64,000 nt of DNA from positions 25,622 through 89,621 of the forward strand of contig MHBF01000019.1 of assembly GCA_001803225.1 (NCBI GenBank). Direction: 5' to 3'. Below are positions 2,170 through 62,781 of this stretch, piece after piece. The notes beneath the pieces are model-generated. The model had not been told where the DNA came from. It saw nothing but the letters and a program-made list of their open reading frames with translations, and searched no databases. Within the stretch, counting starts at the first letter, position 1; each line of letters opens with the position of its first letter. The position numbers and the translations under genes are program-made. Origin of the DNA: Lentisphaerae bacterium GWF2_44_16. GTDB taxonomy: Bacteria; Verrucomicrobiota; Lentisphaeria; Victivallales; GWF2-45-14.

Positions 2170-3453
2170 TTATTTGTTTATCAATTTTATAATTTCAGCG
2201 GCAATGATATCGCCGACGTTATAATCCATTTTTTGTGACCATCCGGTACAGGTCTCGTGTCCGCCTTTGCGGGAAAAAGATTTTTTGGCAGGGACATAAC
2301 CAAGCCAACCATTGGCAAGAGTTACCACGTATGTGTGTTCCGCCTTGCTTTTCTCTTTTATTTCCAATCCCAGCTCCGTGAAATATTCACCGGGCACTGA
2401 AGCAAAGGCAGTGTTTCCGATTTTAAAGACCTGAACAGGCACTTGGGCTTCTTTAGATTTTGAGTGCAGTTTTTTCAGTTTTTCCAAGTCATGCTGATAC
2501 CAGCCGATTTTTACCAGAGAGCTGAAAACATTAACGAATTTATTATTTCTGACAGCCTCTTCCAGATCTGAATAATCCCTGTATTTAAGGGAAAGGTTTT
2601 TTTCTTCAGCGCTTATTCTGCAATCTTCGCGATATAAAATTTTTTCACTGATGATTTTTTTTACGTCTTCGGCCAGTATGGAGCCAATTTTTTCCTTTGT
2701 GTCCTTATACTGCGCGTCAGAGTAGTTTCTGTGAATGATGTTTCCGCACGCGCCATTAAGAAACACTAAGACGGTATCATTTCCATAAAATTCTTTTATT
2801 TTTTTGCACAAGACGCCGGGATAACCGGCGGATATCTCCCCCATGTGATGACACGCGTGGGATGCGAAATTTACAATTATCCCGCTTATTTTTCCGTCTT
2901 TTTCCCTGATGGAAATTACACCAAGTTCCGGGTCTATCGGGCCTTCATTGCAGAGGATATCATCGCTGAGAGTTGATATTGACGGCTGTGATATTACCGT
3001 ACCATCTCTTTTTATAAAGCGCCTGTTGAAAGAAACCCTTCCTTCGAAGCCGGAGGCGATGCCGATTTCAGAATCTTTCATATTCTCGAAAGCTCTTTTC
3101 AGGGCTTTAATACTCTTCTCAATCATGAAGTTTATATATCTTTCCTCTTTCTGAAAACTAACTCTTTCGATGACGGCGGGACACGCATGATTATGTGTTG
3201 CGCATACGAGTATATTGGATTTGGGTATTCCTGTTTCAATGGAAGCTTTTTCTCTTATGGCATCGGCATATTCCTGTTCAATAATGACGATGTCCATAGA
3301 GAGAAAAGCGATGCATTCAGTCCCGTCACTGAAAACGGCGGCATGGACATAAACAGGATCAAGTATTTCGTTGACCTCTCCCGGGGTTATCCTGTATGTC
3401 CTTATCGGAAAATACTCCGGGCTTATGTCAATTTCAGCAAATCCTGCTTTCAT
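2170..3453 (-). CDS. Neutral/alkaline ceramidase-like N-terminal domain family hydrolase (distant fourth paralogue, cytoplasmic)
   Basis: 427 aa. MKAGFAEIDISPE...DPVYVHAAVFSDGTECIAFLSMDIV...VCATHNHACP follows the G-x-A-x-x-DITP / D-x-L-x-A-x-A / THTHSGP pattern of that family. No signal peptide. The start overlaps the upstream stop in an ATGA (3450-3453). Confidence 0.5.
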   Translation of the reverse strand: MKAGFAEIDISPEYFPIRTYRITPGEVNEILDPVYVHAAVFSDGTECIAFLSMDIVIIEQEYADAIREKASIETGIPKSNILVCATHNHACPAVIERVSFQKEERYINFMIEKSIKALKRAFENMKDSEIGIASGFEGRVSFNRRFIKRDGTVISQPSISTLSDDILCNEGPIDPELGVISIREKDGKISGIIVNFASHACHHMGEISAGYPGVLCKKIKEFYGNDTVLVFLNGACGNIIHRNYSDAQYKDTKEKIGSILAEDVKKIISEKILYREDCRISAEEKNLSLKYRDYSDLEEAVRNNKFVNVFSSLVKIGWYQHDLEKLKKLHSKSKEAQVPVQVFKIGNTAFASVPGEYFTELGLEIKEKSKAEHTYVVTLANGWLGYVPAKKSFSRKGGHETCTGWSQKMDYNVGDIIAAEIIKLINK

Positions 3454-4940
3454 TTGTTTTCCTGTGCGCTGAAAAGTTTATTAATGTCTCCAAGTGTTTC
3501 TTCAACGAGTTCCTGTCCTCCGGTGGAATTGACAAGATTACAGTATTGCGTTGCGCTGTAGCCTTTGCCCCATTCGCCGCGTTCCGTTGGAAGATATGAG
3601 CCGCCGCGTTCTCCGACTTCGCTTCCGGCCAACTGGATTACAAATGTCTGTACGGCCGGACTGCGCGCCTGTATGCGATGGGCATAGTCCATATAAAGCT
3701 CGAAACGGTTGGAAGCGAAAGCAATATCGCCAAGGCGCACGACATGAAGCTCCGTCGGCAGTTTCGGATTTTTCTGATAATTTTCATATCGGTCAATGAC
3801 ATTCTGACAGCGTTTTTTAGCGCTTGCGAGCCTGGAATCGGCAATCATGCGCTGCTTGAGTTCAGGATCGGAGGATTCTTTTCCCTGCTCCAATGTTTTC
3901 AAAGTCGCAAGTTCGTTCTCATATTCTTCTTTTGTAATCGGACGCCTTGTCAATTGAATTGTCCTAGTGACATGGGCGAGCGGCAGGCTTCTGCGGATGT
4001 CTTTCGAGGCCCAGCCGGAAACTTCTTCGACTCCTTTGGCGATTTGTTCGGCTATGTCCTGACGGTGGTTAACGCCTTTCAGTTCCATACGCCTTTTCAT
4101 AGCCTCTTTGTAATACATGTAATTCGGTGAGAGATCTCCTGATGGCGCGCACTGCGGCAGAACAAAGAAATCTTTTCCGAATTTTTTGCGGAGTTCCGCG
4201 CGAGCCTCATGCCAGTAATCAGCGGAGAGTTTCCAGATGCTTCCATCCACCTGTGAGGGGCAGGGCACATTAACAAGCGCGCCAGTCAAATTGTTATCTG
4301 GGTCATAGGTAAACAGCACATTAAGAAAATGGTCAGCTCCTGCTTCGAGGTGGCTGAACATCGGGTCATTTGTCTTGCCGTACATCACCGCGTGTCCGTT
4401 GACCATGAGGCCGGGCCTTGCGGCGGCATCGGGGCGTTTTGAAACATCATCAAAATATACTGCGCGGCGGCTCTGCCCTACAAAAGCGAAACCGTAGCCC
4501 CATGAAACTCCCCCAGGCTGTCTTTTGTTCCATGCCTCGACAATCGCGTCGGCCGCCCTGTCGCTGAAAAAAGCCTGATACTCTTTTCCCGGCATTCTAG
4601 GGAGTGTTTCGAACGGATCCTCTGCTTCGTAAACATCGCCTCCTTCATGTGTATGAGTGGCATTCATGATGATTTTTTCAACAGGGATGGCGGGGTTTGT
4701 TTTATGGACTTTAGCACGGATCGTCTTTACCATGAAAGACCACATCACCACTATGTCGCAGGACAGGAAAATGACAGAATCTTCGTCATTCGAAATAGCG
4801 AGCGCTGTAACTGTAACAGGGTCCATAACGCCCTCCGAAATCCTCAAGTGAAATTGTCCGCGAATGCCTACCGGTTTGTCTGTGGAAACATCCCTTGAAG
4901 CCCAAGCGATACGTAAACTGCCATCATCACTGCTGTTCAT
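3450..4940 (-). CDS. Ceramidase-like hydrolase paralogue (cytoplasmic)
   Basis: 496 aa. LRIAWASRDVSTDKPVGIRGQFHLRISEGVMDPVTVTALAIS...VIFLSCD...MNATHTHEGGD, and a C-terminus GGQELVEETLGDINKL that is colinear with the next two genes. Confidence 0.5.
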   Translation of the reverse strand: MNSSDDGSLRIAWASRDVSTDKPVGIRGQFHLRISEGVMDPVTVTALAISNDEDSVIFLSCDIVVMWSFMVKTIRAKVHKTNPAIPVEKIIMNATHTHEGGDVYEAEDPFETLPRMPGKEYQAFFSDRAADAIVEAWNKRQPGGVSWGYGFAFVGQSRRAVYFDDVSKRPDAAARPGLMVNGHAVMYGKTNDPMFSHLEAGADHFLNVLFTYDPDNNLTGALVNVPCPSQVDGSIWKLSADYWHEARAELRKKFGKDFFVLPQCAPSGDLSPNYMYYKEAMKRRMELKGVNHRQDIAEQIAKGVEEVSGWASKDIRRSLPLAHVTRTIQLTRRPITKEEYENELATLKTLEQGKESSDPELKQRMIADSRLASAKKRCQNVIDRYENYQKNPKLPTELHVVRLGDIAFASNRFELYMDYAHRIQARSPAVQTFVIQLAGSEVGERGGSYLPTERGEWGKGYSATQYCNLVNSTGGQELVEETLGDINKLFSAQENK

Positions 4941-4955
4941 AAGTTAAACCTTTTT

Positions 4956-6512
4956 TTATTTCCATAATTCGTTAATAGTTTTCAATGTTTCCTCGACAAG
5001 CTCCTGTCCGCCCTTCGAGCCTACCTTATTGCAGTACGGGGTTGCGCTGTAGCCACCGCCAGCTTCGGCCCTTTCGGTCGGAAGGTAGGAGCCTCCGCGC
5101 TCAATTCCCTTTCCGGCGAGTTGGATTATAAATGTCTGGACAGCCGGGCTTCTCGACTGTATTCTGACGCCGTAGTCCAGGAAGAGTTCGAACGGATTTG
5201 TCGCAAAAACAATGTCGCCAAGCTTCACCACGTGGATTTCAACAGGCTGTTTTTGCGATGTTCCTTGCGACTGCTCCTCGTATCTTTTTACAACGTCCCT
5301 GCAACGTTGCAGGAAAGTTTGTTGTCTTGAATCCAGTTTTTCCATTGCGTCAAATTGCCTGGCCCATTCGAGATTTTGCTTATATTCTTTTTCTGTTATA
5401 ATTCTTTTTGTGAGATTTATTTCTTTCGAAACATGTTTCAGGTTTACGTCGTTTCTCATGTCCTTAGGGGCCCATGAATATGCGTCGTCAAAAGCCTGTT
5501 TTACCTTCCTGGCTATATCCATTCTCGCGTCAATGCCTTTTAATTCGAGCTTGCGTTTTTCAGCCGCTTTGTTGAGCATCCGGTATGATGTCTGGTCACC
5601 TGCCGCAGAGGATTGCGGGAGTATGAAGAATTTTTCGCCGTACTGTTCTCTTAAGAGTTGCCTGACTTCATGCCAGAAGTCGGCTGAAACGTAAGAAGCC
5701 CCTCCTGTTTCCTGAGACGGGCAGGCCATGTTTATAATGGAGCCTGTGAGTTTTCCTTCCATATTGAAAGTTAAAAGGAATTGCACGGTGTGGTCTTCGT
5801 AACCTTCGATATGGCTGAAGAACGGGTTTTCTGTTTTCCCATACATGCGGGCGTTTTTCTCGATAACTCGCCCGGGGGATTCTTTATAGTCGGGCTGTTT
5901 TGAAAAATCCTCAAGATAAACGGCCCTTCTGTTGCGCCCTACCACCGCATCGCTGAAACCCCATGCGAGCATTCCGGGTATGCGGCTGTTCCAGCTTTCG
6001 ACTGCGGCTTCCGCTATTTTCTCCACAAGGAAAGCCCGGTTTTCTTCCGGATAAAGCAAGCCTTTTTTTTCTTCCGCAGAGAGCTTACTATATTTATCCG
6101 TTCTGTCGCGTATGTCCGGGGCCGTGTGGGCATGAGTGGCGTTCAATACGAGTTTATCCAGAGGGAAATCTTTGGATATTGTTTTAATTATTGCTTTGCT
6201 TTCCTCAATGAGCGGAGTCCCTATGCAAACGCTGTCACAGGAAACAAAGATGAAAGAATCTCCTGAAGTTTCTGATGATACCGCAAGGGCTGTTACGGAG
6301 AGCGAGTCCCTTATTTCCGAAGATATGCGCATATGAAATTGCCCGGCAAGGTTTACTTTGCCTTTCGGAGTGACATCCCTTGATGCCCAGCCGATTAAAA
6401 TGTTCGATTTGGAGTCCATATCTTTTTCTTTCCTTGAATTCAAGTTTTCGGAAGCACAACCGCATATTGATAAGACAGCGGCAAATAAAAGTGACATTCT
6501 GAATAATCTCAT
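4956..6512 (-). CDS. Ceramidase-like hydrolase paralogue, putative lipoprotein
   Basis: Start moved to the ATG at 6510-6512. It overlaps the upstream TGA as ATGA and is preceded by GGAGG. The N-terminus MRLFRMSLLFAAVLSICGCASEN looks like a signal peptide plus a Cys lipobox. The body (GWASRDVTPKGKVNLAGQFHMRISSEIRD, LNATHAHTAPD) is close to 6509-7975. Confidence 0.55.
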   Translation of the reverse strand: MRLFRMSLLFAAVLSICGCASENLNSRKEKDMDSKSNILIGWASRDVTPKGKVNLAGQFHMRISSEIRDSLSVTALAVSSETSGDSFIFVSCDSVCIGTPLIEESKAIIKTISKDFPLDKLVLNATHAHTAPDIRDRTDKYSKLSAEEKKGLLYPEENRAFLVEKIAEAAVESWNSRIPGMLAWGFSDAVVGRNRRAVYLEDFSKQPDYKESPGRVIEKNARMYGKTENPFFSHIEGYEDHTVQFLLTFNMEGKLTGSIINMACPSQETGGASYVSADFWHEVRQLLREQYGEKFFILPQSSAAGDQTSYRMLNKAAEKRKLELKGIDARMDIARKVKQAFDDAYSWAPKDMRNDVNLKHVSKEINLTKRIITEKEYKQNLEWARQFDAMEKLDSRQQTFLQRCRDVVKRYEEQSQGTSQKQPVEIHVVKLGDIVFATNPFELFLDYGVRIQSRSPAVQTFIIQLAGKGIERGGSYLPTERAEAGGGYSATPYCNKVGSKGGQELVEETLKTINELWK

Positions 6513-7975
6513 TTTTCCTCCCATAATCCGTTGATTGTTTTCAAAGTTTCTTCAACGAGTTCCTGCCCGCCTTTTGAGCCGACTTCATTGCAGTAAACGC
6601 ATGCGCTGTAACTGCCACCCGCTTCGGCGCGTTCCGTCGGCAGATATGTCCCGCCTCTGTCAACGCCTTTTCCGGCAAGCTGTACTATGAAAGTCTGAAG
6701 CGCCGGGCTTCTTGCCTCTACTCTGAGACCGTAATCCAGAAAAAGTTCGAAGGGATTTGTCGCAAAAACAATGTCGCCAAGCCTTATCACGTGAATCTCC
6801 ACGGGCTGCTTCGGAAATATGCCTTTCTGCTGATTTTCATATCGCTCAACAACTGCTTTGCAACGGGCGAAACAACGTTCCTGATGCGATGTTAACTGCA
6901 TAGTCTGAAACTGTTTAATCCATTCAAGATTTTTCTTATATTCCTCTTCATTGACGGCACGCTTGGAAAGATTGATTTCACTACAAATATGTTTCAGTTG
7001 CAAATCATTTTTCATATCTTTGGCCGCATACGGATATGTGTCGTCAAAGGCCGCTTTGATCCTCTGCGCTATCGCCATTCTCGAATCAATGCCTTTCAAT
7101 TCAAGCATGCGCTGCTCGGCTTTTTTGTTGAACATCAGATGCGGCGACTGATCTCCGGCGGCGGCGCATTGTGGAAGTATAAAGAGTTTTTCGCCGTATT
7201 CTTTCCTTAAAAGCATCCTGACTTCATGCCAGAAGTCGGCGGAGACTTGAGATATGCCTTCAGTTTCCTGTGAAGGACAGACTATATTTATAATGGATCC
7301 CGTAAGTTTTTTATTCATATCAAAAGTGAAAAGGAATTGCACCGTATGGTCTTCATAACCTTCGATATGACTGAAAAACGGGTTGTCTGTTTTCCCGTAC
7401 ATGCAGGCGTTTTTCTCGATTTTCTGCCCGGGAAATTCCTTATAATCGGGCTGTTTTGAAAAATCCTCAAGATAAACCGCCCTGCGGTTCCGTCCCGCGA
7501 CGGCATAACCCAATCCCCACGCGAGCATGCCCGGCTTGCGGTTGTTCCAACTTTCAATCGCCGCCTCCGCTATTTCGTCTGAAAGGAATTCTATGTTCTC
7601 CCTTGGATACAAGAGGTCTTTTTTCTCTTCATCAGTCAGTGCTTCATAGTTGTAATGACCTTCGCGCAAATCAGGGGCGGTATGAGTATGTGTAGCGTTT
7701 AAAACAAGCTTGTCCAAAGGAAAATCTTTGTATTTTGCTTTGATTATTTTTTTACTTTTTTCAATGAACGGCGTGCCGATGGCACCGGTATCGCAGGATA
7801 CAAAAATGAAAGAATCTTCAGGGTTTTGCGAGGATACGGCAAGGGCTGTTACTGAAAGAGGATCTCTTATTTCCGTCGCTATGCGCATACGGAATTGTCC
7901 TGCGAGATTTACTTTGCCTTTCGGAGTAACATCCCTTGAAGCCCAACCGATGTGTAAACTGCCATCCTCGCTCAT
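6509..7975 (-). CDS. Ceramidase-like hydrolase paralogue (cytoplasmic)
   Basis: 488 aa. HIGWASRDVTPKGKVNLAGQFRMRIATEIRDPLSVTALAVSS, LNATHTHTAPD, FFSHIEGYEDHTVQFL. No signal peptide. Confidence 0.5.
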   Translation of the reverse strand: MSEDGSLHIGWASRDVTPKGKVNLAGQFRMRIATEIRDPLSVTALAVSSQNPEDSFIFVSCDTGAIGTPFIEKSKKIIKAKYKDFPLDKLVLNATHTHTAPDLREGHYNYEALTDEEKKDLLYPRENIEFLSDEIAEAAIESWNNRKPGMLAWGLGYAVAGRNRRAVYLEDFSKQPDYKEFPGQKIEKNACMYGKTDNPFFSHIEGYEDHTVQFLFTFDMNKKLTGSIINIVCPSQETEGISQVSADFWHEVRMLLRKEYGEKLFILPQCAAAGDQSPHLMFNKKAEQRMLELKGIDSRMAIAQRIKAAFDDTYPYAAKDMKNDLQLKHICSEINLSKRAVNEEEYKKNLEWIKQFQTMQLTSHQERCFARCKAVVERYENQQKGIFPKQPVEIHVIRLGDIVFATNPFELFLDYGLRVEARSPALQTFIVQLAGKGVDRGGTYLPTERAEAGGSYSACVYCNEVGSKGGQELVEETLKTINGLWEEK

Positions 7976-9261: not shown

Positions 9262-9315
9262 TTTGAAATCTCCTGTAGTTTTTGAACTTATCCGGTGTTG
9301 CCGGGACTTTAAGAC

Positions 9316-9428
9316 GGTTGCGACGAAGCGCAACCCTCCACGATTATACGTTAATTATCTATCCCGTGGAGGGATTTGCTTCGTCAAATCCGTTCCCCCG
9401 GATAACAATTTCCTATACAATTAAATTA
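9316..9428. repeat. Composite intergenic hairpin-repeat element (ACGRAG hairpin family plus a 27-mer shared with 44501-44527)
   Basis: Hairpin GGTTGCG-ACGAAG-CGCAACC (9316-9335) followed by CTCCACGATT. A second stem pairs CCCTCCACG (9334-9342) with CGTGGAGGG (9365-9373). Hairpin GGATTTG-CTTCGT-CAAATCC (9372-9391) follows. Then ATAACAATTTCCTATACAATTAAATTA (9402-9428) is identical to 44501-44527. Related copies sit at 26594-26686 and 53714-53781. Confidence 0.8.
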
Positions 9429-9548
9429 TACTTTCAATTATAGAAGATACCGGAGATATAGGCAATAGCTGATATACCGTAAAAAATTGCCATTACTTGT
9501 ACTTTGTTGCGTTTTCAGGGTATCAGAGGAAAAAACATCCGTATTTTC

Positions 9549-9591
9549 CGCAAACGGAGTTGAGCGGCATTACAAAAAGGGACTCCGTCCC
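9549..9591. repeat. Hairpin repeat with 7-bp arms ACGGAGT/ACTCCGT and a 21-nt loop, ending in GGGACTCCGTCCC
   Basis: CGCAAACGGAGTTGAGCGGCATTACAAAAAGGGACTCCGTCCC aligns with 26729-26770 (CGCAAACGAAGTTGAGCGAAGATAATAAAAGTGACTTCGTCACC). The loop length is the same, and a G:C to A:T change is compensated on both arms. Confidence 0.75.
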
Positions 9592-24733: not shown

Positions 24734-25282
24734 TTAAGGACTCGGATTAAATATTTCAAGAGAATAATAGCGTTTTTCCCTTTGCGCATAAGGCTTTTCT
24801 ATCGGCCAACTGACTTCGACATGAAGTTGCGCCCCGTACTGATAAGTCAAATTATAGGAAGTCCCATACACATAAATTCCCGTAACCTGTGTTTTCCATA
24901 CCTTTACGGCTGCCATGAAATCAGTGGCACTGGCTGAACCCTGAGTAATTTTGTACAATCCACTTGTGGGACAGGTATAAATACTTGAAATGGCTGTTGC
25001 CGACCATGAAGTGGCTCCATCATCATTTGTCGGAACGGTCTCTGTAATTATTCCTCCTCCTGCCGTGGTTGATATGTTGGTGTTCCAATCATTGTTGCAC
25101 TGCATGGAAACATAATTCAGAAACTGATTTGCGATATCAGGGGCATAATTGTTTCCCACCGCATCACGCGAAGCATTCAGGGCCACAGGAAAAAGCGACA
25201 TAACTCCGGCAACGCCTATACCTATCACCGCAATAGCCAGGGTGATTTCAACCATGTTGAAAGCTTTTTTAATTTTGTTCAT
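24734..25282 (-). CDS. GspI/PilV-like minor pseudopilin
   Basis: 182 aa. MNKIKKAFNMVEITLAIAVIGIGVAGVMSLFPVAL. The size and the position between the H-like and J-like genes fit. Confidence 0.5.
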   Translation of the reverse strand: MNKIKKAFNMVEITLAIAVIGIGVAGVMSLFPVALNASRDAVGNNYAPDIANQFLNYVSMQCNNDWNTNISTTAGGGIITETVPTNDDGATSWSATAISSIYTCPTSGLYKITQGSASATDFMAAVKVWKTQVTGIYVYGTSYNLTYQYGAQLHVEVSWPIEKPYAQREKRYYSLEIFNPSP

Positions 25283-25892
25283 AGGAATATGCTGGCCTCC
25301 CGGTAAAGAGGTTCATGGTTATGGAAGCGATGTTGGAAGTATTCATCTGAGTTACGGTCGTACCGTCAATTTTAGCTTCCTGAAAAGAAAGCACAGGAAC
25401 CGTTGTGTTCTGAAGGGAACCGTAAGGACTGAAAATCAGTGAATTGGCTACAGTAGCGGTACCCGAAGCTATATCATCTATTTTAACACTGGAAACCGAT
25501 ATGGGATTTGTAACACTGTTTATAGCTACGCCAGTCGGCAACTGCTGCCAGTCTTCCCCTTCCGCCCAACTGCTGAAACTATATGTGCCAGCAACAGCCT
25601 TGGTAACATAACCTATTCTGTACTGGAAATAAGGAAATCCACTTGGAAATCCAGCATCCGTCTGAGGAAAAAACACAGCCACATATCTATTGCTGCTGAT
25701 TGCATAAGCCCTGGCCACGCCCAACTTGCCGCCCACCTGTCTTATGGCGGCATCAAGTCCCTGCCCCTTCACCATCTTTTCAAATGCCGGAAGCCCTATG
25801 CCCAATATTGTCGCTACTATTGCCATCACAACGAGCATTTCCACAAGGGTATAAGGAGCTCTCAAAAATCTGAATATTTTATTCCTTTTCAA
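25269..25892 (-). CDS. GspH/FimT-like minor pseudopilin
   Basis: I prefer the TTG start at 25890-25892 (AAGGAG 9 nt upstream). It gives (M)KRNKIFRFLRAPYTLVEMLVVMAIVATILGIGLPAF, colinear with the leader of 25934-26569. The track start at 25943 would add 17 codons that cross a repeat motif. LDAAIRQVGGKLGVARAYAISSNRYVAVFF is GspH-like. Confidence 0.55.
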   Translation of the reverse strand: MKRNKIFRFLRAPYTLVEMLVVMAIVATILGIGLPAFEKMVKGQGLDAAIRQVGGKLGVARAYAISSNRYVAVFFPQTDAGFPSGFPYFQYRIGYVTKAVAGTYSFSSWAEGEDWQQLPTGVAINSVTNPISVSSVKIDDIASGTATVANSLIFSPYGSLQNTTVPVLSFQEAKIDGTTVTQMNTSNIASITMNLFTGRPAYSYEQN

Positions 25893-25933
25893 TTTCCCTG
25901 ACTCCTTCCATTTTGCATTCCGCATTCTGAAAA

Positions 25934-26569
25934 TTATCTCCATGAACAGACATCGTCATATCCTTTACCCTCACCAAACATAGAATTTCTTCCGCCATCG
26001 TCAATTTTATTTGGCCCCAGTGAATAAATCAAAACAGTATTGCTGTAAGGCGCAGAGGGCGTAACGCACGCCGGAACCGCCCCCGCAGCATCAGCGGATG
26101 TTATAGCTCCATCATAGTTAGTATCCAAATATATCCTGAAAAGATTACCCCAGGGGTCCTGAAAATCGCCTTTTTGCGCATTTGTCATAGTTCCTGATAC
26201 ATCTGTAGTATAATTGCCATAATTACTCGGCACTTCAAGAAACCTATTTTTCTTGCCGTTTACATCTCCTACAGTCGTATTTGGCCCCTGAACACATGTC
26301 AAATAGGCAAAAAACTGTCTGTAATTAGAAGCATTTGAAACCATATTACCAAAACTGGGAAGATATCCGTAAATGGCTTCGTACTGTTTTATAGCAACAT
26401 TGATAGAATTCATTTGAGACTTAGTTTTTGTAATCTTGGCTGTTGTCGGATATTTTAAAACTACTGGTATAAGAATTCCCATGAGAATAGCAATAATCGC
26501 TACGACAACGAGAATTTCCACAAGCGTAAAAGGAGCTCTCAAAAATCTGAATATTTTATTTCTCTTCAT
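25934..26569 (-). CDS. GspG-like pseudopilin (paralogue 3)
   Basis: Start moved to the ATG at 26567-26569 (AGGAG upstream): MKRNKIFRFLRAPFTLVEILVVVAIIAILMGILIP. The C-terminus DPWGNLFRIYLDTNYDG...IYSLGPNKIDDGG...DDVCSWR resembles the GspG DPWGNPY...SLGxDG region. The track extension (MRFVAT...) is repeat DNA. Confidence 0.65.
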   Translation of the reverse strand: MKRNKIFRFLRAPFTLVEILVVVAIIAILMGILIPVVLKYPTTAKITKTKSQMNSINVAIKQYEAIYGYLPSFGNMVSNASNYRQFFAYLTCVQGPNTTVGDVNGKKNRFLEVPSNYGNYTTDVSGTMTNAQKGDFQDPWGNLFRIYLDTNYDGAITSADAAGAVPACVTPSAPYSNTVLIYSLGPNKIDDGGRNSMFGEGKGYDDVCSWR

Positions 26570-26593
26570 TTTGCTCCTGTATTTATTCTCTTT

Positions 26594-26770
26594 GGAGGGA
26601 TTTGCTTTGTCAAATCCGCCCGCAAAGCGGGATTTATCAATGGGACTCCGTCCCCCGGTTGCGACGAAGCGCAACCTTTCACGATTTCACCTACTTTTCA
26701 TTTCATTACGCATTCTTTACTTCCTCTTCGCAAACGAAGTTGAGCGAAGATAATAAAAGTGACTTCGTCA
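26594..26770. repeat. Dense mosaic of hairpin repeat modules in the spacer between two pseudopilin genes
   Basis: In order:
- GGAGGGATTTG-CTTTGT-CAAATCC (26594-26617)
- CCCGC-AAA-GCGGG (26618-26630)
- GGGACTCCGTCCC (26642-26654)
- GGTTGCG-ACGAAG-CGCAACC plus TTTCACGATT (26657-26686)
- CATTACGCATTCT (26704-26716)
- ACGAAGT-21 nt-ACTTCGT (26734-26768), which touches the stop codon of 26768-27427. Confidence 0.8.
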
Positions 26771-27427
26771 CCTCCACGAACAAACATCGTCTGTCCCCTT
26801 GGCGCCACCGAAAATAGAATTATTTCCGCCATCATTAGTTTTATTAGGCCCCAGAGAATAAATCAAAATGGTTCCGTTAAACGTAGTACTGACACATGCA
26901 GGAACTGAACCTGCCGCATCAGCGGATGTTATCGTTCCGTCATAGTTAGTATCTAAAAAAATCTGGAAAATATTGCCCCAGGGATCATAAAAATCACCTA
27001 CCTTGGCCCCAGTTACGGTTCCTTTTACAGCTGTAGTTGTCGTCCCGTAATTACTGGGAGCTTCAAGAAATCTGACTTTTCTGGCATTCACATCACCTGT
27101 GGCTGTCCCCGGTCCCTGTGCGCATGTCAGATAAGCAATAAGCTGTCTATATCTATCGGTGTTGGCGTTGCTGTTGTCTGTACTACTGGGCTTTGCGGTA
27201 GAAGCGTTTTGCAAGGCGCCGAAAACGGGTAAATACCCATAGGTAGATTCATACTGTTTCATCGCGGTAACCATGGCGTTCATCTGGCCTTTGGCTTTGG
27301 TTACTCTGGCTTTTTCCTGAACTTTCATGACTGCCGGTATCAAAATACCCATTAAAATAGCGATAATCGCAATCACAACGAGGAGCTCGATAAGCGTAAA
27401 TTTCAGTTTTCTCAGCTTTTTTCTCAT
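26768..27427 (-). CDS. GspG-like pseudopilin (paralogue 2)
   Basis: Start taken at the ATG at 27425-27427 (GGAG 9 nt upstream): MRKKLRKLKFTLIELLVVIAIIAILMGILIPAVMKVQEKARVTKAKGQMNAMVTAMKQYESTYGYLP. The C-terminus DPWGNIFQIFLDTNYDG...IYSLGPNKTNDGG...DDVCSWR is paralogous to 25934-26569. Confidence 0.65.
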   Translation of the reverse strand: MRKKLRKLKFTLIELLVVIAIIAILMGILIPAVMKVQEKARVTKAKGQMNAMVTAMKQYESTYGYLPVFGALQNASTAKPSSTDNSNANTDRYRQLIAYLTCAQGPGTATGDVNARKVRFLEAPSNYGTTTTAVKGTVTGAKVGDFYDPWGNIFQIFLDTNYDGTITSADAAGSVPACVSTTFNGTILIYSLGPNKTNDGGNNSIFGGAKGTDDVCSWR

Positions 27428-27479
27428 TATTGACATCTCCACTTACTTGAGGAATAAGCAACCGGGAAAAACAACTATT

Positions 27480-27500
27480 GGGACTCCGTCCCTTTCCGTG
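27480..27500. repeat. GGGACTCCGTCCC hairpin unit plus TTTCCGTG
   Basis: GGGACTCCGTCCCTTTCCGTG. The same unit with one loop change sits at 27760-27780 (GGGACTTCGTCCCTTCCGTGG). The 13-mer is also at 9579-9591 and 26642-26654. Confidence 0.75.
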
Positions 27501-27641
27501 CTTCGCTTCACTCAGTTTTTATTTTTTATATTTAACACCGCTAAATTACATCTTTATAGTCTTTATTACCAATGTTTTTTAATAAAAACCATCTAGCTTT
27601 TCATCAGAGCATATTTCACGCCATTTGCCCCTGATTTTATT

Positions 27642-27788
27642 TTTTAACCACGGAACACACAGAAAACACGGAAAAAACTAAAATTTTAAGAAATGCCTTT
27701 TAAAATTCCGCATTCCGTCTTTCTTCCGTGTTTTCCGGCCCCGAAGGGGCTTTTATAATGGGACTTCGTCCCTTCCGTGGTTAAAAAA
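27642..27788. repeat. 147-bp element bounded by perfect 16-bp terminal inverted repeats (MITE-like or a large structured intercistronic RNA)
   Basis: TTTTTTAACCACGGAA (27642-27657) is the exact reverse complement of TTCCGTGGTTAAAAAA (27773-27788). A nested pair follows: GAAAACACGGAA (from about 27661) and TTCCGTGTTTTC (from about 27725). Internal hairpins are GCCCC-GAA-GGGGC (27739-27751) and GGGAC-TTC-GTCCC (27760-27772). The element starts immediately after the stop codon of 27789-28376. Confidence 0.7.
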
Positions 27789-28376
27789 TTACTTATTCGT
27801 GAAATTTGTAATGTCATCGCCCTTGCCCCAGGAGCCTTTTGCGGCAGAGGCGGTACCAAAATTAGCGTCTGAGACAGCCACAGCATCGCCAAGTTTGGCG
27901 TCTGAGCCCAATGAACCTATATCAAATGAAGTCCTGTTGAAAAGTCCGGGACAACGGTAATATATGGGAGAACCGAACGTGTCAACCAGCCAAGAACGAT
28001 TTGGAGCACCTGCGTCTTTCTGAGTATCTGCCGCCTTCAGGCTTTCGCCATCAATCATCAGGTTGAAAGCCGGATAATCAAGGTAAAAAGCGCAAACACG
28101 GGAAGTGGCGTGAATCTGATTCCTGCCAACGTTGACATCAGTCCAGTCCCCAGAAGATATTGCCGGTATATAATAGCCGTATTTGGATTTATAATTTTCA
28201 AGGGCGACTTCGACTTTTTTAATGAGTGCTCTGGTCTTGGATTCGGCGGACTTGCTGCTGGCATACTGGAAAACACCGATGGAAAGACCGAGAAGGACGG
28301 AAAGAATAAACATCACCGCGAGCAGTTCGACAAGCGTTACAAATGAACGCCTTGACTTTGTTTTATGCCAAATCAT
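27789..28376 (-). CDS. GspG-like pseudopilin (paralogue 1, first gene of the operon)
   Basis: 195 aa. MIWHKTKSRRSFVTLVELLAVMFILSVLLGLSIGVFQYASSKSAESKTRALIKKVEVALENYKSKYGYYIP has the GspG-type helix, followed by SLGSDAKLGD. Confidence 0.55.
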   Translation of the reverse strand: MIWHKTKSRRSFVTLVELLAVMFILSVLLGLSIGVFQYASSKSAESKTRALIKKVEVALENYKSKYGYYIPAISSGDWTDVNVGRNQIHATSRVCAFYLDYPAFNLMIDGESLKAADTQKDAGAPNRSWLVDTFGSPIYYRCPGLFNRTSFDIGSLGSDAKLGDAVAVSDANFGTASAAKGSWGKGDDITNFTNK

Positions 28377-28741: not shown

Positions 28742-31189
28742 ATGCGTTTTCAATGTCCATTTTGCCGCGGAATAGTGGCGGTTGAAAATTCAGACTTGGG
28801 TATAGATGTGCAGTGCGGTTACTGCGGAGAAATCGTTACTGTCCCCTATTCGCGGGTTGCCACAGGCGCGGTTATAGCTGATTTTATCATACTTGAGGAA
28901 CTCGGCAGAGGCGGCATGGGAGTAGTTTATCTCACGCATCAGATTTCTTTGGACCGTCCGGCAGCGCTCAAGGTACTTTCCGATACTTACGCGAACAACG
29001 CGGAATTCGTAGTCAATTTCATCAAGGAGGCAAGGGCCGCCGCTAAACTCAATCATCCTCACATTGTACAAGCTTACGCGGTTGGTGAAGACGAAGGCAT
29101 TTTCTATTTCGCGATGGAAAATATCGACGGCGAAACAATGAAGAATGTCATAAAGCGGGAAAAAGTTATTTCCATCGACAGGTCGATTACCATTATCCAG
29201 CAGATAGCTGAAGCTCTCGATTACGCGTGGAAAGAGCAACGCTTAATACACCGTGACATCAAGCCGGACAATATAATGCTCACAAAAAATGGCCGGGCAA
29301 AACTCGCTGACCTCGGTCTCTCAAGAGTGGCCGGAGAAATTGATGACTCTAATGATGATGAAGTAATGGGCACTCCTCAGTACATCAGCCCCGAACACCT
29401 CACCGGGGCCCCTATGGATATACGCAGCGACATTTACAGTCTGGGCGCGACATTCTACCACTTTGTAACTGGAAAATTTCCTTTTGAGGGAAGGACCGCT
29501 TCCGAAATAGCCAGAAAACATCTCGACGAAAAACTCGTTCCTCCAAATGAATTCAATCCTGATGTGCCTGAGTCCGTCAGCAAAATCGTAGTTAAAATGA
29601 TGGAAAAAAGCATCAAGGACCGCTATCAGGACGCAGCTGAACTCGTTGATGATTTGAGAATGGTACGCAGAAGTAAACTTCCATCTTCTTCTTCAGGAAA
29701 CATAACCGGCTCTTTTAAAAGGTCAGGCTCAAAGACCGAACGGGCACTTCAGTTGAGAAATACCAAAGGAAGCAAAACCGGACAGTTCAATGTTTCTAAA
29801 TCGGCAACTTCCGATATTCTGAATAAAAATCTTTCCGGCTCCGGGAGTCACAGCTTCAATGCCTCCGGAAATCCGGAAGAAACTCTGTACATGACCAATA
29901 CCGGAAAATCTTCAAAGGCCATAATCATTACGCTGCTGGTGCTTATAGTCGTTCTCATCGCGGGCGGCGCTTCAGCTTATTTCATCTACAAGCAGAAAGA
30001 AGCCAAAAGGCTCGAGGAAATCACAAGAAAAGAAGAGCTCGCGAAAAAAGAGGAAATAGCGAAGAAAGAAGAGCTTGCGAAAAAAGAGGAAATAACAAAA
30101 AAAGCCCAGGAAGAAGCTTCCAAAAAGAAAATGATAGAGCCCCTCCCTGCCAACGCAACACCGTTCATGAAAAAAATGCACGAAATACTCTCCTTCATAA
30201 ACGCGAATCCAAATAAAGAAGGTGAATTTCTTAAGAAATGCGAAGAACTTTTTTCCTCTTCACTGGTTCCATTCGGACAGGATGAAAAAGATAAACTGAA
30301 CGGGCTGAAGGGGCTTTACGTGGAAATCGACGAAAAAAGATTGGACAAACTGAGAAAAGCCGCAAAAGATAAATACGATGCCCTTATCGCCGATAAAAAA
30401 ACCGCGGAAGAAAAACGTTCAGCCGCAGACAAAATAAAGGCGGAAAAGGAAAGAAAAGAGAAAGAACTTCAGGCAAAGAAAGATAAAGCGGAGCAGGAAA
30501 AAAAGGAGCAAATGGAAAAGAAAATTTCCGAATATGTTGAAAAAATAGAGAGCGACAAAAACCTGATGCGCCGTACATATATCGATCTTGTCAAAAGAAA
30601 TGAGTTCAAAAGGGCCAGAGACACTTTCGCTTCTTCTCACGATGAACCGGCAAAAGCCAAGAACAATTATCCGGAAATAGAAAAAGCGGCGGCGGATTTC
30701 GATGCCTGGGGCAAAAAAATGCAGGAAGGCGTAGACCTCACTGAAAAACTCCATAAAATAGTAACTGACAGCGGTACGAAGCTTTCCGGTTCCACTGTTG
30801 AAATAAAAAGCGGCATGCTCGGTAAAATCGTCGATATCAGAAACGGAAATATAACTGTAAAATCACTTATCGACAGCAAAATCACTACTGTTCCCGTCTC
30901 GGAACTTGAAGTTAACTTTCTGGCCAAACTCCTGAAAAAGGCTTCCGAAAAAGTGGAGAATGGTTCCGAAGCGGCTTTTTACTATCTCCTGAACAATGGA
31001 GAATTCACGAAGGCCAGGGATTATGTCCCCGGTGAAGACTGGAAAAAAGAACTCAGCGATACCGCCTATGAATACTTCAAGCTGAAACTGAGTTTTGCCT
31101 CGGAAAAAGAAAAGGACGCCCTGGCCAGAAAATTCGGCGGCAATTCTGATTACAGAAGGGCCAAAAAGGATTCCCCTCACTCAAACTAA
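28742..31189 (+). CDS. Membrane Ser/Thr protein kinase with an N-terminal zinc ribbon and a long extracytoplasmic coiled-coil region
   Basis: 815 aa.
- Zinc ribbon: CPFCRG...CGYCGE.
- Kinase motifs: GRGGMGVVY, AALKVL, HRDIKPDNIML, DLGLSR, GTPQYISPE.
- One TM segment: AIIITLLVLIVVLIAGGASAYFIY.
- Then KKEELAKKEEIAKKEELAKKEEITKK and a Lys/Glu-rich coiled coil. Confidence 0.85.
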   Translation: MRFQCPFCRGIVAVENSDLGIDVQCGYCGEIVTVPYSRVATGAVIADFIILEELGRGGMGVVYLTHQISLDRPAALKVLSDTYANNAEFVVNFIKEARAAAKLNHPHIVQAYAVGEDEGIFYFAMENIDGETMKNVIKREKVISIDRSITIIQQIAEALDYAWKEQRLIHRDIKPDNIMLTKNGRAKLADLGLSRVAGEIDDSNDDEVMGTPQYISPEHLTGAPMDIRSDIYSLGATFYHFVTGKFPFEGRTASEIARKHLDEKLVPPNEFNPDVPESVSKIVVKMMEKSIKDRYQDAAELVDDLRMVRRSKLPSSSSGNITGSFKRSGSKTERALQLRNTKGSKTGQFNVSKSATSDILNKNLSGSGSHSFNASGNPEETLYMTNTGKSSKAIIITLLVLIVVLIAGGASAYFIYKQKEAKRLEEITRKEELAKKEEIAKKEELAKKEEITKKAQEEASKKKMIEPLPANATPFMKKMHEILSFINANPNKEGEFLKKCEELFSSSLVPFGQDEKDKLNGLKGLYVEIDEKRLDKLRKAAKDKYDALIADKKTAEEKRSAADKIKAEKERKEKELQAKKDKAEQEKKEQMEKKISEYVEKIESDKNLMRRTYIDLVKRNEFKRARDTFASSHDEPAKAKNNYPEIEKAAADFDAWGKKMQEGVDLTEKLHKIVTDSGTKLSGSTVEIKSGMLGKIVDIRNGNITVKSLIDSKITTVPVSELEVNFLAKLLKKASEKVENGSEAAFYYLLNNGEFTKARDYVPGEDWKKELSDTAYEYFKLKLSFASEKEKDALARKFGGNSDYRRAKKDSPHSN

Positions 31190-44500: not shown

Positions 44501-44556
44501 ATAACAATTTCCTATACAATTAAATTAATCTCTGCGGCAGGATTGTCAATCAGCAA
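44501..44556. repeat. Composite intergenic repeat: a 27-mer shared with 9402-9428 fused to a 30-mer shared with 49638-49667
   Basis: ATAACAATTTCCTATACAATTAAATTA (44501-44527) and AATCTCTGCGGCAGGATTGTCAATCAGCAA (44527-44556). The latter is identical to, and in the same orientation as, 49638-49667. Confidence 0.85.
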
Positions 44557-44648
44557 AGCTCAATGCGCCAGCTGGTTCCTGATCTGGAAAAGGCAAGATC
44601 GGCAATCTACTCCCTTAAAAAAAATTCCACCTTTTTCCAAATCTTTAC

Positions 44649-49583: not shown

Positions 49584-49637
49584 TTAAAAAATCGTGTAAA
49601 ACACAACAACTGCCAATAAAAAAAACTAAATTTAAAT

Positions 49638-49667
49638 AATCTCTGCGGCAGGATTGTCAATCAGCAA
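49638..49667. repeat. 30-mer direct repeat, the right-hand copy of 44527-44556
   Basis: AATCTCTGCGGCAGGATTGTCAATCAGCAA is identical to 44527-44556 and in the same orientation. Weaker similarity continues for about 13 nt (TCCCTAATGCTCC versus AGCTCAATGCGCC). It lies between the convergent stops of the permease and the AraC gene. Confidence 0.85.
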
Positions 49668-49670
49668 TCC

Positions 49671-50519
49671 CTAATGCTCCCGGCGGTTTCTTGCGCGGAA
49701 AAGGCTTGGTGAAAGGCCAAGCTTATTTTTGAAAATACGACTGAAATAAAATTGATCTCCAAAGCCGGTCAGGGAAGCTATTTTATGAATGCACGCGTCA
49801 CCAATCAGCAGTTCCTGCGCGCGGCTTAAACGGAAATTCAGAACATATTGATTGGGCGATATACCTGAGGCTTCCTGAAAAACTTTGAAAAAGCGCGACA
49901 CAGACAATCCCGCCAGTTCCGCAAGTTTGTCAACGGGAATCTGCTCCTGAAAATTCTGATGAATATACTCAAATACCGTCTGAAGCCTGTTGTAATGCTC
50001 AAGACGCGCCAGAGCATCCGCCTTGAGAGTGGAGAGCAGTATTATTTTTTCAAGCAGCCGCATGCCGATACCGGCCCTGAGAGTCGCGCTCAGAAGAAAA
50101 TTTTCCTGAGCTTCCGCCGCAAACAATTCTCTATTGAGTTCTCCTATGAAATCGCCGATTTTTCTGTCCATGACAAAAGGAGTCTCAAGCAGTACCAAGG
50201 GGTCTTGTCCTCCCATTATGGCGAAACGGAAAGAAATACCGCGCCGTCTGGTCTTTCCGACATCCGGATTCATTGACCGGTAAAGTATTCCCGCGCGAAT
50301 CAGGACAGCGCTTCCGGCACGGGCTTCCTGTTCTTTTGCGCCTTTGTGCTGAAAAATCTGATCGCCGCCGATATACTGATTTATCGCGTGAAGCGCGCGC
50401 CTGATATATGTGCGGCTCTCATGATGCGGACGCAAGAGCACATGGGAAGGCGCCAGGTATTCCGTCCGCATACTGCGCAGAATAATGTCAATGGTTTTCG
50501 TTTCGGGCTTCATACTCAA
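49671..50519 (-). CDS. AraC-family transcriptional regulator
   Basis: 282 aa. C-terminal double HTH: LAELAGLSVSRFFKVFQEASGISPNQYVLNFRLSRAQELL...IASLTGFGDQFYFSRIFKNKLGLSP. Confidence 0.85.
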   Translation of the reverse strand: MSMKPETKTIDIILRSMRTEYLAPSHVLLRPHHESRTYIRRALHAINQYIGGDQIFQHKGAKEQEARAGSAVLIRAGILYRSMNPDVGKTRRRGISFRFAIMGGQDPLVLLETPFVMDRKIGDFIGELNRELFAAEAQENFLLSATLRAGIGMRLLEKIILLSTLKADALARLEHYNRLQTVFEYIHQNFQEQIPVDKLAELAGLSVSRFFKVFQEASGISPNQYVLNFRLSRAQELLIGDACIHKIASLTGFGDQFYFSRIFKNKLGLSPSLFRARNRREH

Positions 50520-53697: not shown

Positions 53698-53713
53698 ACG
53701 TCAAAAAAATGCC

Positions 53714-53781
53714 GGCGATGACGGAGCATCGCCCTCCACGATTTTACACATAACGGGGAGGGATTTGCGTCGTCAAATCCG
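53714..53781. repeat. Intergenic hairpin-repeat element, a compensated variant of 9316-9392
   Basis: GGCGATG-ACGGAG-CATCGCC plus CTCCACGATT (53714-53743). The stem CCCTCCACG/CGGGGAGGG has one mismatch. GGAGGGATTTG-CGTCGT-CAAATCCG follows (53757-53781). Confidence 0.8.
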
Positions 53782-53822
53782 TCTTTGATTTAGATAAGAA
53801 TAAACAAAAAAGGAAAACGTAT

Positions 53823-62697: not shown

Positions 62698-62781
62698 TGC
62701 TTTCTCCTGTTATTATATTAAATACTTAATTCCCCTTCTAAAATCCTTCCTATCCTAATTTTTCATTCCGCATTCTAAAAG

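Follow-up and report, generated by a model that had tools for sequence, protein, structure and literature searches.

Intergenic hairpins with a CTCCA foot tag in a Lentisphaerae genome are probably REP-type repeats

Repetitive extragenic palindromic sequences (REPs) have been sorted into GTAG- and CGTC-tagged superfamilies, for which head-to-head (HH), tail-to-tail (TT) and head-to-tail (HT) dimers, stem subfamilies with compensatory changes, and REPtrons, in which the gene of a REP-associated tyrosine transposase (RAYT) is flanked by the same repeats, have been described (Di Nocera et al. 2013, PMC3733652). The same work reports abundant REPs in Opitutus terrae and Rhodopirellula baltica, and provides a precedent for REPs with RAYTs, doublets and stem subfamilies in bacteria of the Planctomycetota-Verrucomicrobiota-Chlamydiota (PVC) superphylum, including O. 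terrae. Canonical REPs are defined by a GT[AG]G sequence 0-2 nt from the hairpin foot, with atypical structures found near some RAYT classes (Quentin et al. 2018, PMC6006769). The REPINs of Pseudomonas consist of two inverted REPs and a short spacer, with a RAYT as the presumed mobilizer (Bertels & Rainey 2011, PMC3116915).

Here we analyze a 64,000-nt stretch (the window) of contig MHBF01000019.1 from Lentisphaerae bacterium GWF2_44_16, which has a GC content of 44% and a PVC-like gene content (DUF1559 and pseudopilin genes). The window holds six copies of a hairpin of the design GG-N5-ACGRAG-N5-CC followed by CTCCA, which form inverted pairs at three places, near 9.3, 26.6 and 53.7 kb. We put at roughly 80% the probability that these are REP-type repeats forming three inverted doublets equivalent to bacterial interspersed mosaic elements (BIMEs) or REPINs, with the RAYTs as their cognate enzyme class. 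Like the REP/BIME system of Escherichia coli and its TnpA_REP, which belong to the GTAG superfamily (PMC3733652, PMC6006769), the hairpins are 20-40-nt palindromes with an unpaired conserved foot tag, occur in many copies per genome in a few stem subfamilies, and form alternating clusters of unlike neighbors, as the Y and Z REPs do in BIMEs. They also share with that superfamily the HH, TT and HT arrangement of dimers, with 10-100 nt between the two units, the REPtrons, and an HUH/Y1 enzyme matching the RAYT model; with REPINs they share the pairing of two inverted units across a short spacer and the presumed role of a RAYT. The family falls within the broad definition of REPs but lacks the canonical tag; it represents a familiar type of element carrying an unusual tag, not a new system.

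Six hairpins in three inverted doublets

At locus 1, copy A1 (9316-9340, plus strand) contains the hairpin GGTTGCG-ACGAAG-CGCAACC (9316-9335) followed by CTCCACGATT, with the tag CTCCA. It matches R1, our covariance model of the family, at 9312-9346 with 43.1 bits (E=1.5e-10). Its partner B1 (9367-9391, minus strand) reads GGATTTG-ACGAAG-CAAATCC-CTCCA on its own strand and matches R1 at 9361-9395 (40.3 bits, E=9.6e-10). The two copies form a TT doublet (9316-9391) with the tags facing inward across a 26-nt spacer, located between divergent genes assigned by Pfam to a DegT-type aminotransferase (minus strand, start 9264) and a radical-SAM protein (plus strand, start 9646).

Locus 2 is an HH doublet with the tags facing outward. 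Copy B2 (26593-26617, minus strand; R1 18.1 bits, E=0.0029) reads GGATTTG-ACAAAG-CAAATCC-CTCCA, with one loop mismatch, and lies 24 nt upstream of the ATG of a pseudopilin-like gene (25934-26569, minus strand). Copy A2 (26657-26681, plus strand) repeats the A1 hairpin GGTTGCG-ACGAAG-CGCAACC at 26657-26676 and continues with TTTCACGATT, in which the tag has degenerated to TTTCA; it matches R1 at 26653-26687 (27.9 bits, E=4e-6). The 39-nt spacer between B2 and A2 contains two mini-hairpins, described below.

Locus 3 is again a TT doublet with facing tags, situated between a DUF1559 gene (Pfam; end 53697) and a gene of 1065 aa (start 53823). Copy A3 (53714-53738, plus strand) has the hairpin GGCGATG-ACGGAG-CATCGCC at 53714-53733, followed by CTCCACGATT with an intact CTCCA, and gives the best R1 match (53710-53744, 45.6 bits, E=2.8e-11). 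Copy B3 (53756-53780, minus strand) reads GGATTTG-ACGACG-CAAATCC-CTCCC; its loop and its tag each carry a single mismatch (R1 53750-53784, 21.4 bits, E=3e-4). The window thus contains two TT doublets and one HH doublet; loci 2 and 3 lie between co-directional genes and locus 1 between divergent ones. Searched with R1, the window gave these six copies and no other convincing match; their E-values lie between 2.8e-11 and 3e-3.

These elements had been noticed in an earlier sequence-only reading of the window, and all the hairpin and partner sequences it quoted were found at their positions. Its observation of four compensated stem changes also holds: four of the seven stem pairs of A3 differ from A1, each with its partner base changed to match. 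The partner, GGAGGGATTTG-CNTYGT-CAAATCCG at 9368, 26594 and 53757, had been taken for the same hairpin type inverted, and its minus strand indeed shows the same architecture, including the CTCCA flank, so that every locus consists of one plus-strand and one minus-strand copy. The partner had been placed downstream in each locus, which is correct at 9.3 and 53.7 kb, but at 26.6 kb it lies upstream of the GGTTGCG hairpin. The idea of a family built around ACGRAG applies to the hairpin loop, where the motif occurs in about 7 of the 30 window hairpins that combine a 6-nt loop with a stem of 6 bp or longer, but not to the bare hexamer, which is not enriched (57 matches in the window against 46.7 expected).

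As single-stranded DNA, the tags-in doublets have two possible folds, namely a hairpin for each copy or a single long, imperfect one; the predicted fold at locus 1 has an energy of -21.1 kcal/mol (z=-6.5). In its long form doublet 1 resembles a REPIN. The tags-out locus 2 is predicted to form four separate hairpins.

Covarying stems, a fixed tag and RAYT genes in related genomes

To place the window copies in a wider context, we scanned contigs representing one genome per species with the pattern GG-N5-ACGRAG-N5-CC-CTCCACG, in which the five inner stem positions of each arm are free. The scan gave at least 122 matches in at least 116 loci. Among the 122 matches listed, 83 have perfect 7/7 Watson-Crick stems and another 15 pair at 6/7 positions. 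The well-paired matches listed come nearly all from Verrucomicrobiota and other PVC bacteria, plus some Armatimonadota; their hosts include Opitutaceae, Akkermansia (with metagenome-assembled genomes (MAGs) among the carriers), Chthoniobacterales (among them Chthoniobacter flavus Ellin428), Terrimicrobiaceae, Kiritimatiellia, Victivallaceae/Lentisphaerae, Planctomycetota and Armatimonadota. The badly paired matches listed are scattered over unrelated phyla (for example Streptomyces, Muribaculaceae, Fulvivirga and an archaeon) and look like chance matches. The family spans Verrucomicrobiota, other PVC bacteria and some Armatimonadota. The same pattern gave eight matches in viral contigs, three of them with perfect stems (GGTTTTG, GGAAACG and GGATTTG) that are new or shared with the window. 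One contig classed as viral (IMGVR_UViG_2721755270_000004, our loci L002 and L007) carries the window's stem classes GGATTTG and GGTTGCG together with GGTTTTG; its likely source is a related bacterium or a prophage region.

In the 704 kb of hairpin-centered loci fetched from the scans (numbered with the prefix L), R1 found 223 copies. The family alignment was filtered for pairing, which makes its covariation statistics circular; the evidence for covariation is taken instead from the raw matches, from shuffles, and from an arm-free set of 162 copies that were re-detected by loop and CTCCA flank alone with at most one mismatch, after removal of the exact-pattern seeds. In the arm-free set the distribution is bimodal: 87 of 162 copies pair at 7/7 positions and 35 at 6/7, while most of the other 40 pair at 0-3 positions. 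Pairing at six or more of the seven positions is found in 75% of the copies (122/162), compared with 6.9% for shuffled partners, and the GG/CC stem base is present in 111 of the 122 well-paired copies even though it was not demanded. Over all fetched loci, the 226 well-paired copies have 67 different stems, with 2-5 stem classes per genome, each in several copies. The stems of the family therefore covary in a compensated manner. The proposal that the hairpin itself is under selection, with conserved loop and flank and covarying stems, is borne out at large scale by the raw matches, the arm-free set and the shuffled partners.

The copies are units of 25 nt that occur in large numbers and mostly between genes, as expected of REPs, and they are clustered. 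Among neighbors within 300 nt, 83 pairs are inverted (45 tags-out, 38 tags-in) and 16 are tandem, in clusters of one to five copies. The stems differ in 77 of the 83 inverted pairs. This is a difference from REPINs, in which both arms are copies of the same REP; with unlike stems, each hairpin can fold alone. A further difference is that the doublets here are both tags-in and tags-out. A few copies lie within long open reading frames (ORFs) of 659-1103 aa in crude gene calls (L052 863-947 and 4438-4518, L065 1919-1945, L043 5838-5987) and may be intragenic REP insertions like those reported for O. terrae.

The foot tag is nearly invariant. CTCCA follows 96% of 156 perfect GG..CC hairpins with an ACGRAG loop that were found without requiring a flank. 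In 45 partner copies unbiased by the seed, its five positions are conserved in 45, 45, 45, 45 and 44 copies, and the base after it is free (G 19, C 13, A 9, T 4). The conserved unit is GG-N5-ACGGAG-N5-CC-CTCCA, or TGGAG-GG-N5-CTCCGT-N5-CC on the opposite strand. The 7-bp stem is fully paired in most copies; within the 6-nt loop, C2 and G5 could pair, leaving a 3-nt loop and one bulged base. Canonical GTAG-tagged REPs have either a basal stem of 7 bp or more that is completely paired and closed by a loop of 2-5 nt, or a long hairpin with bulges.

The tag sets the family apart from both described superfamilies. Instead of the GT[AG]G found 0-2 nt 5' of the foot in the GTAG superfamily, TGGAG stands directly at the foot in 44-45 of the 45 unbiased copies; GTGG two bases from the foot occurs in 13 of these (about 29%) and in three of the six window copies. 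The 6-nt loop keeps its sequence from phylum to phylum, the loops of most GTAG families being 2-5 nt long, and the stems are far more variable between genomes. The CGTC superfamily has an unpaired CGTC end and no transposase, whereas here the flank is CTCCA/TGGAG and RAYT genes are associated.

Two other structural interpretations of the conserved parts were considered and rejected. A pseudoknot between loop GGAG and flank CTCC would lack a linker spanning the 7-bp stem, and relatives with the loops TCC, TCT and CGCTGT keep the tag. In an operator palindrome read as double-stranded DNA the half-sites would correspond to the stems, which vary freely, while it is the unpaired parts that are conserved.

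Motif and profile searches of all ORFs in the fetched loci identified Y1/HUH proteins (HxH ... Y..NPV[RK]RG) in L009/L105, L037, L082 and L088, each encoded amid hairpin doublets of its own type. The RAYT-like gene of L082 is flanked by classical GTAG-tagged hairpins and that of L037 by GTGG-tagged ones. In L088, from C. flavus Ellin428, the flanks (4467-4628 and 5284-5334) carry 10-bp hairpins CGTGCCCAAA-TGGAG-TTTGGGCACG, with TGGAG as the loop and not as the foot tag. Both flanks of the L009 gene carry TGGAG-tagged hairpins (TGGAG-CCGGCCG-TCC-CGGCCGG ... ACGGCGG-GGA-CCGCCGT-CTCCA), and a doublet of the ACGGAG/CTCCGT type lies 350 nt upstream.

A metagenome scan with the L009 protein returned 11 relatives with 41-56% identity. 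In L129, hairpins of the form TGGAG-GGACGGG-CGCTGT-CCCGTCC ... GGACGCC-ACGGCG/ACAGCG-GGCGTCC-CTCCA directly adjoin both the start and the stop of the RAYT coding sequence (850-1320) and give four R1 matches with E-values from 4e-5 to 3e-3. The L131 gene is flanked by inverted GGCTCGG-ACGGAG-CCTCGCC hairpins with the exact loop. In L125, L126 and L127, both flanks carry arrays of TGGAG-tagged hairpins with short loops, and in L134 both carry GTAGC-CACGGCA-CTCCGT-TGCCGTG, which combines the canonical tag with the same CTCCGT loop. RAYT genes flanked by the same repeats, that is, REPtrons, are thus found in related genomes only: those of L129 and L131 are flanked by the window's hairpin type, and those of L009, L125, L126 and L127 by hairpins sharing its TGGAG tag. 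Inverted repeats of about 80 nt (L131 1-80 and 950-1030) enclose both RAYT and hairpins in L131, which suggests that this REPtron is part of a larger element with terminal inverted repeats at its ends, or constitutes such an element as a whole.

The flanked proteins are HUH/Y1 enzymes of the RAYT type. Against the NCBIfam model NF047646 ('REP-associated tyrosine transposase', cut-off 80 bits), L134 (88.8 bits) and L129 (84.6) score above the cut-off and L131 (79.1), L125 (65.4) and L009 (61.8) below it, compared with only about 18 bits on the IS200 TnpA model. The HxH and Y..NP motifs are invariant in a protein alignment. Together with the BIME-like inverted clusters, the RAYTs of L129 and L131, with their NF047646 matches and flanking hairpins of this type, support the REP/RAYT-type reading that had been among the original suggestions.

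Mini-hairpins and other repeats of the window

The sequence-only reading had included in the same element a set of 13-mers containing CTYCGT. These proved to be a separate family of mini-hairpins, with GGGACTYCGTCCC (GGGAC-TYC-GTCCC) at 9579, 26642, 27480 and 27760 and the variant GTGACTTCGTCAC (GTGAC-TTC-GTCAC) at 26759. In the full design, a small hairpin with a stem of 5 bp and a loop of GAA/AAA (or CGCAA-ACGRAG-TTGaGCG) is separated by some 10 nt of AT-rich sequence (for example TTTTATAAT) from the mini-hairpin G(G/T)GAC-TYC-GTC(C/A)C. Four of the five copies show this succession of small hairpin, spacer and mini-hairpin, and the copy at 27480 stands alone.

All are described here on the plus strand. 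The doublet at 9548-9591 (repeat family D9, alignment A4) consists of CCGCAAACGGAGTTGAGCGG, an AT-rich spacer and GGGAC-TCC-GTCCC, and gives a terminator-like match on both strands. The doublet at 26619-26654, within the spacer of the HH doublet, reads CCCGC-AAA-GCGGG, ATTTATCAAT, GGGAC-TCC-GTCCC. A third, at 26728-26779, consists of TCGCAAACGAAGTTGAGCGA, an AT-rich spacer and GTGAC-TTC-GTCAC followed by CTCCACG; on the minus strand the hairpin is followed by TTTTATTAT, and the doublet overlaps the stop codon of a minus-strand pseudopilin gene (26768-27427). The single mini-hairpin (27480-27492) is GGGAC-TCC-GTCCC followed by TTTCCGTG. The last doublet (27738-27772) reads GCCCC-GAA-GGGGC, TTTTATAAT, GGGAC-TTC-GTCCC, then TTCCGTGG, and lies just downstream of a T2SS-G-like pseudopilin gene (27789-28376, minus strand).

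The same design recurs with other stems in the related contig (L002 8479-8513, L007 7023-7101), and these stems covary relative to the window. The window has 10 such triloop hairpins, compared with an average of 4.0 in shuffles. Read on the minus strand, the copies at 9579 and 26759 are followed by TTTT in a terminator-like arrangement, and some mini-hairpins may act as small terminators.

The genes around locus 2 form a tandem cluster of pseudopilin-like genes (25269-28376) with prepilin N-terminal methylation motifs, a T2SS-G-like domain and paralogous DNA similarity of 71-80%. Its intergenic gaps hold both locus-2 REP copies and four mini-hairpins. A 28-nt motif, ATTTTKCATTCCGCATTCTRAAARTTAT, occurs at 25910-25937 and 62758-62785 (89% identical) between tandem minus-strand genes and may serve as a promoter or an operator; a similar word is present near 27700-27722.

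Other repeats were also observed. A 77-nt intergenic direct repeat (AATTAAATTAATCTCTGCGGCAGGATTGTCAATCAGCAA...) is present at 44518-44594 and 49629-49705 with 79% identity. Three tandem paralogues of 496, 522 and 488 aa (3450-7975; DNA 74-78% identical) have weak ceramidase-like Pfam matches, and further paralogues lie on the contig beyond the start of the window. An 18-nt periodic repeat (GAGGAAATCACAAGAAAAGAAGAGCTCGCGAAAAAA...) at 30014-30085, within a Ser/Thr kinase gene (28742-31189), probably encodes a charged E/K-rich repeat.

Competing explanations and the meaning of the family

The mechanism we propose for the REP-type hairpins is modelled on work on E. coli TnpA_REP and the IS608 (IS200/IS605) TnpA, summarized in PMC6006769. 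Each unit comprises a stem of 7 bp, in which the GG/CC base is fixed and the other five pairs covary freely, the conserved 6-nt loop ACGGAG or ACGAAG, the unpaired invariant foot tag CTCCA (TGGAG on the other strand) and, usually, an inverted partner nearby whose stem differs. It would function in single-stranded form: a RAYT of the HUH/Y1 type would bind the extruded hairpin, reading the loop and the foot tag while requiring only that the stem be paired, and would cut and rejoin beside the hairpin, spreading or maintaining copies. Since only copies keeping tag, loop and a paired stem would stay substrates, the unpaired parts would be conserved and the stems would change in a compensated way. 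Such a mechanism would also keep loop and tag constant across phyla while stems drift into a few classes per genome. We infer that the window's own genome encodes, or once encoded, a RAYT.

Several observations weigh against a REP/RAYT system. The tag is TGGAG rather than the canonical GT[AG]G. Classical REPs reportedly avoid divergent intergenic regions, whereas locus 1 lies in a divergent promoter region, and the family shows no depletion from such regions in crude gene calls, a further difference from the GTAG superfamily. Neither the 64-kb window nor some 12 kb of additional contig yielded a RAYT gene, and the evidence tying the hairpins to a transposase comes from the related genomes, where such genes were found; even there, RAYT-like genes are rare in the hairpin-centered loci (4-5 in 704 kb). 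No presence/absence polymorphism was seen among three groundwater-metagenome assemblies of this uncultured organism (ERZ27254744 k141_94320, ERZ909592 and ERZ28564009), in which the copies are identical; with assemblies more than 99.7% identical, no insertion polymorphism is visible.

The alternative that survives best, although we consider it unlikely, is a primary function at the RNA level. The hairpins would then be structured untranslated-region (UTR) or intercistronic RNAs whose loop and CCUCC flank are read by a host RNA-binding factor, with possible roles as mRNA stabilizer, RNase processing site or translational regulator acting through Shine-Dalgarno (SD)-like GGAGG and anti-SD-like CCUCC tags. 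The six window copies are all intergenic and probably transcribed, a sigma70-like promoter running from 9465 to 9437 on the minus strand would put doublet 1 in a 5' UTR, B2 lies close upstream of a start codon, and the tag looks like an anti-SD sequence and its complement like an SD sequence. The background sections of PMC3733652 and PMC6006769 cite effects of REPs elsewhere on mRNA stability and translation.

The mismatches and the gene context point the other way. Imperfect stems contain 13 G·T, 24 A·C and 22 C·T mismatches, so that wobble pairs are preferred on neither strand and the strand-specific G·U tolerance of a structured RNA family is not seen. Clusters fall into tandem, convergent and divergent gaps in numbers (37/15/12) that follow the background (183/69/60) with no preference for gene ends, counts that come from crude ORF calls in GC-rich DNA, for which the 'inside ORF' class is unreliable. 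The disfavored G·T pairs and the lack of gene-context bias make an RNA motif or a terminator unlikely. In addition, the copies occur in both orientations and mostly as inverted pairs, the same hairpins flank transposase genes, and a search of the whole window against Rfam at gathering thresholds matched no family. The structured-RNA alternative raised in the sequence-only reading is thus not supported, and the DNA-level element it favored on grounds of orientation gains from the inverted clusters, the absence of wobble bias and the absence of gene-context bias. An RNA role may still arise secondarily from a DNA repeat, for instance through effects on the stability of adjacent mRNAs or on access to ribosome-binding sites.

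We regard as very improbable that the hairpins are ends or miniature derivatives of autonomous IS200/IS605 insertion sequences (ISs), comparable to palindrome-associated or miniature inverted-repeat transposable elements (PATEs, MITEs) and moved by a TnpA(IS200) rather than a RAYT. The subterminal hairpins of IS608 and ISDra2, recognized as single-stranded DNA by a Y1 HUH enzyme, follow the same logic of a hairpin with a short guide sequence at its foot (PMC6006769); some flanked proteins give weak Y1_Tnp (PF01797) or IS200 matches, and the L131 unit has the outer inverted repeats of about 80 nt. The flanked proteins, however, score 62-89 bits on NF047646 against about 18 bits on transpos_IS200, and thus fit the RAYT and not the IS200 TnpA model. 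Moreover, the 25-nt units or doublets are scattered singly instead of forming paired left and right ends around cargo, and neither tnpB nor an IS body adjoins the window copies.

That the hairpins are lineage-typical intrinsic or bidirectional terminators is hardly plausible. They are stable, GC-containing and intergenic, and the separate mini-hairpin family does give terminator-like matches, but the A and B hairpins lack a T-tract, were not flagged in a terminator scan of the window, and do not show the combination of GC-rich hairpin and T-tract downstream of genes that marks an intrinsic terminator. Copies also lie between divergent genes and upstream of start codons, and termination alone would not call for a loop and a 5-nt flank that stay the same from one phylum to another.

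Chance or a duplication confined to the window, which the small number of copies in 64 kb and the paralogous pseudopilin genes around locus 2 might suggest and which had been named as a possible refutation, is already refuted: the resemblance among the three loci stops at about 30 nt (repeat families D15 and D16), which excludes segmental or local duplication as the cause of the hairpins, R1 E-values reach 1e-11, and hundreds of copies with other stems occur in other genomes.

Within the REP reading, the closest catalogued families by host are GTAG-17 to -19 of O. terrae and GTAG-20 to -22 of R. baltica (PMC3733652), which are the same kind of element in the same superphylum. Identity with the O. 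terrae families was considered and rejected on the basis of the REP-encoded peptides in the supplement of that study, whose back-translation gives palindromes other than the present one, tagged GTAG or GTGG (for example GTGG-CACGGGCG-TCC-CGCCCGTG). GTAG-20 of R. baltica is ambiguous: by this route it may carry an ACGGAG loop, with its tag apparently on the other side of the ACGGAG strand, and the present family may conceivably be identical with one already catalogued.

It is possible, though doubtful, that the TGGAG hairpins constitute a third tag-defined REP superfamily beside GTAG and CGTC, present across the PVC superphylum and Armatimonadota and served by a RAYT clade re-targeted from GTAG to TGGAG that reads the 6-nt loop and ignores the stem sequence. 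If so, the series from a GTAG tag with a CTCCGT loop (L134), through TGGAG with CTCCGT, to TGGAG with short loops would help in working out how Y1/HUH enzymes alter their DNA specificity. Because the tag is an SD-like GGAGG and its complement anti-SD-like, the doublets may also have been co-opted by their hosts to control the translation of adjacent genes.

To our knowledge, REP and RAYT work has been carried out almost entirely in Proteobacteria, with the GTAG tag taken as defining. The hairpins described here show the same organization in Verrucomicrobiota and other members of the PVC superphylum, Akkermansia MAGs and C. flavus among them, but their invariant tag is another one, their loop is conserved from phylum to phylum and their stems covary freely. 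They provide a searchable signature, GG-N5-ACGGAG-N5-CC-CTCCA, for annotating hundreds of unexplained intergenic hairpins, which should prevent their being mistaken for riboswitch-like RNAs or terminators. The matched RAYT and hairpin pairs of L129, L131 and L134 offer test material for how HUH/Y1 enzymes read tag and loop.

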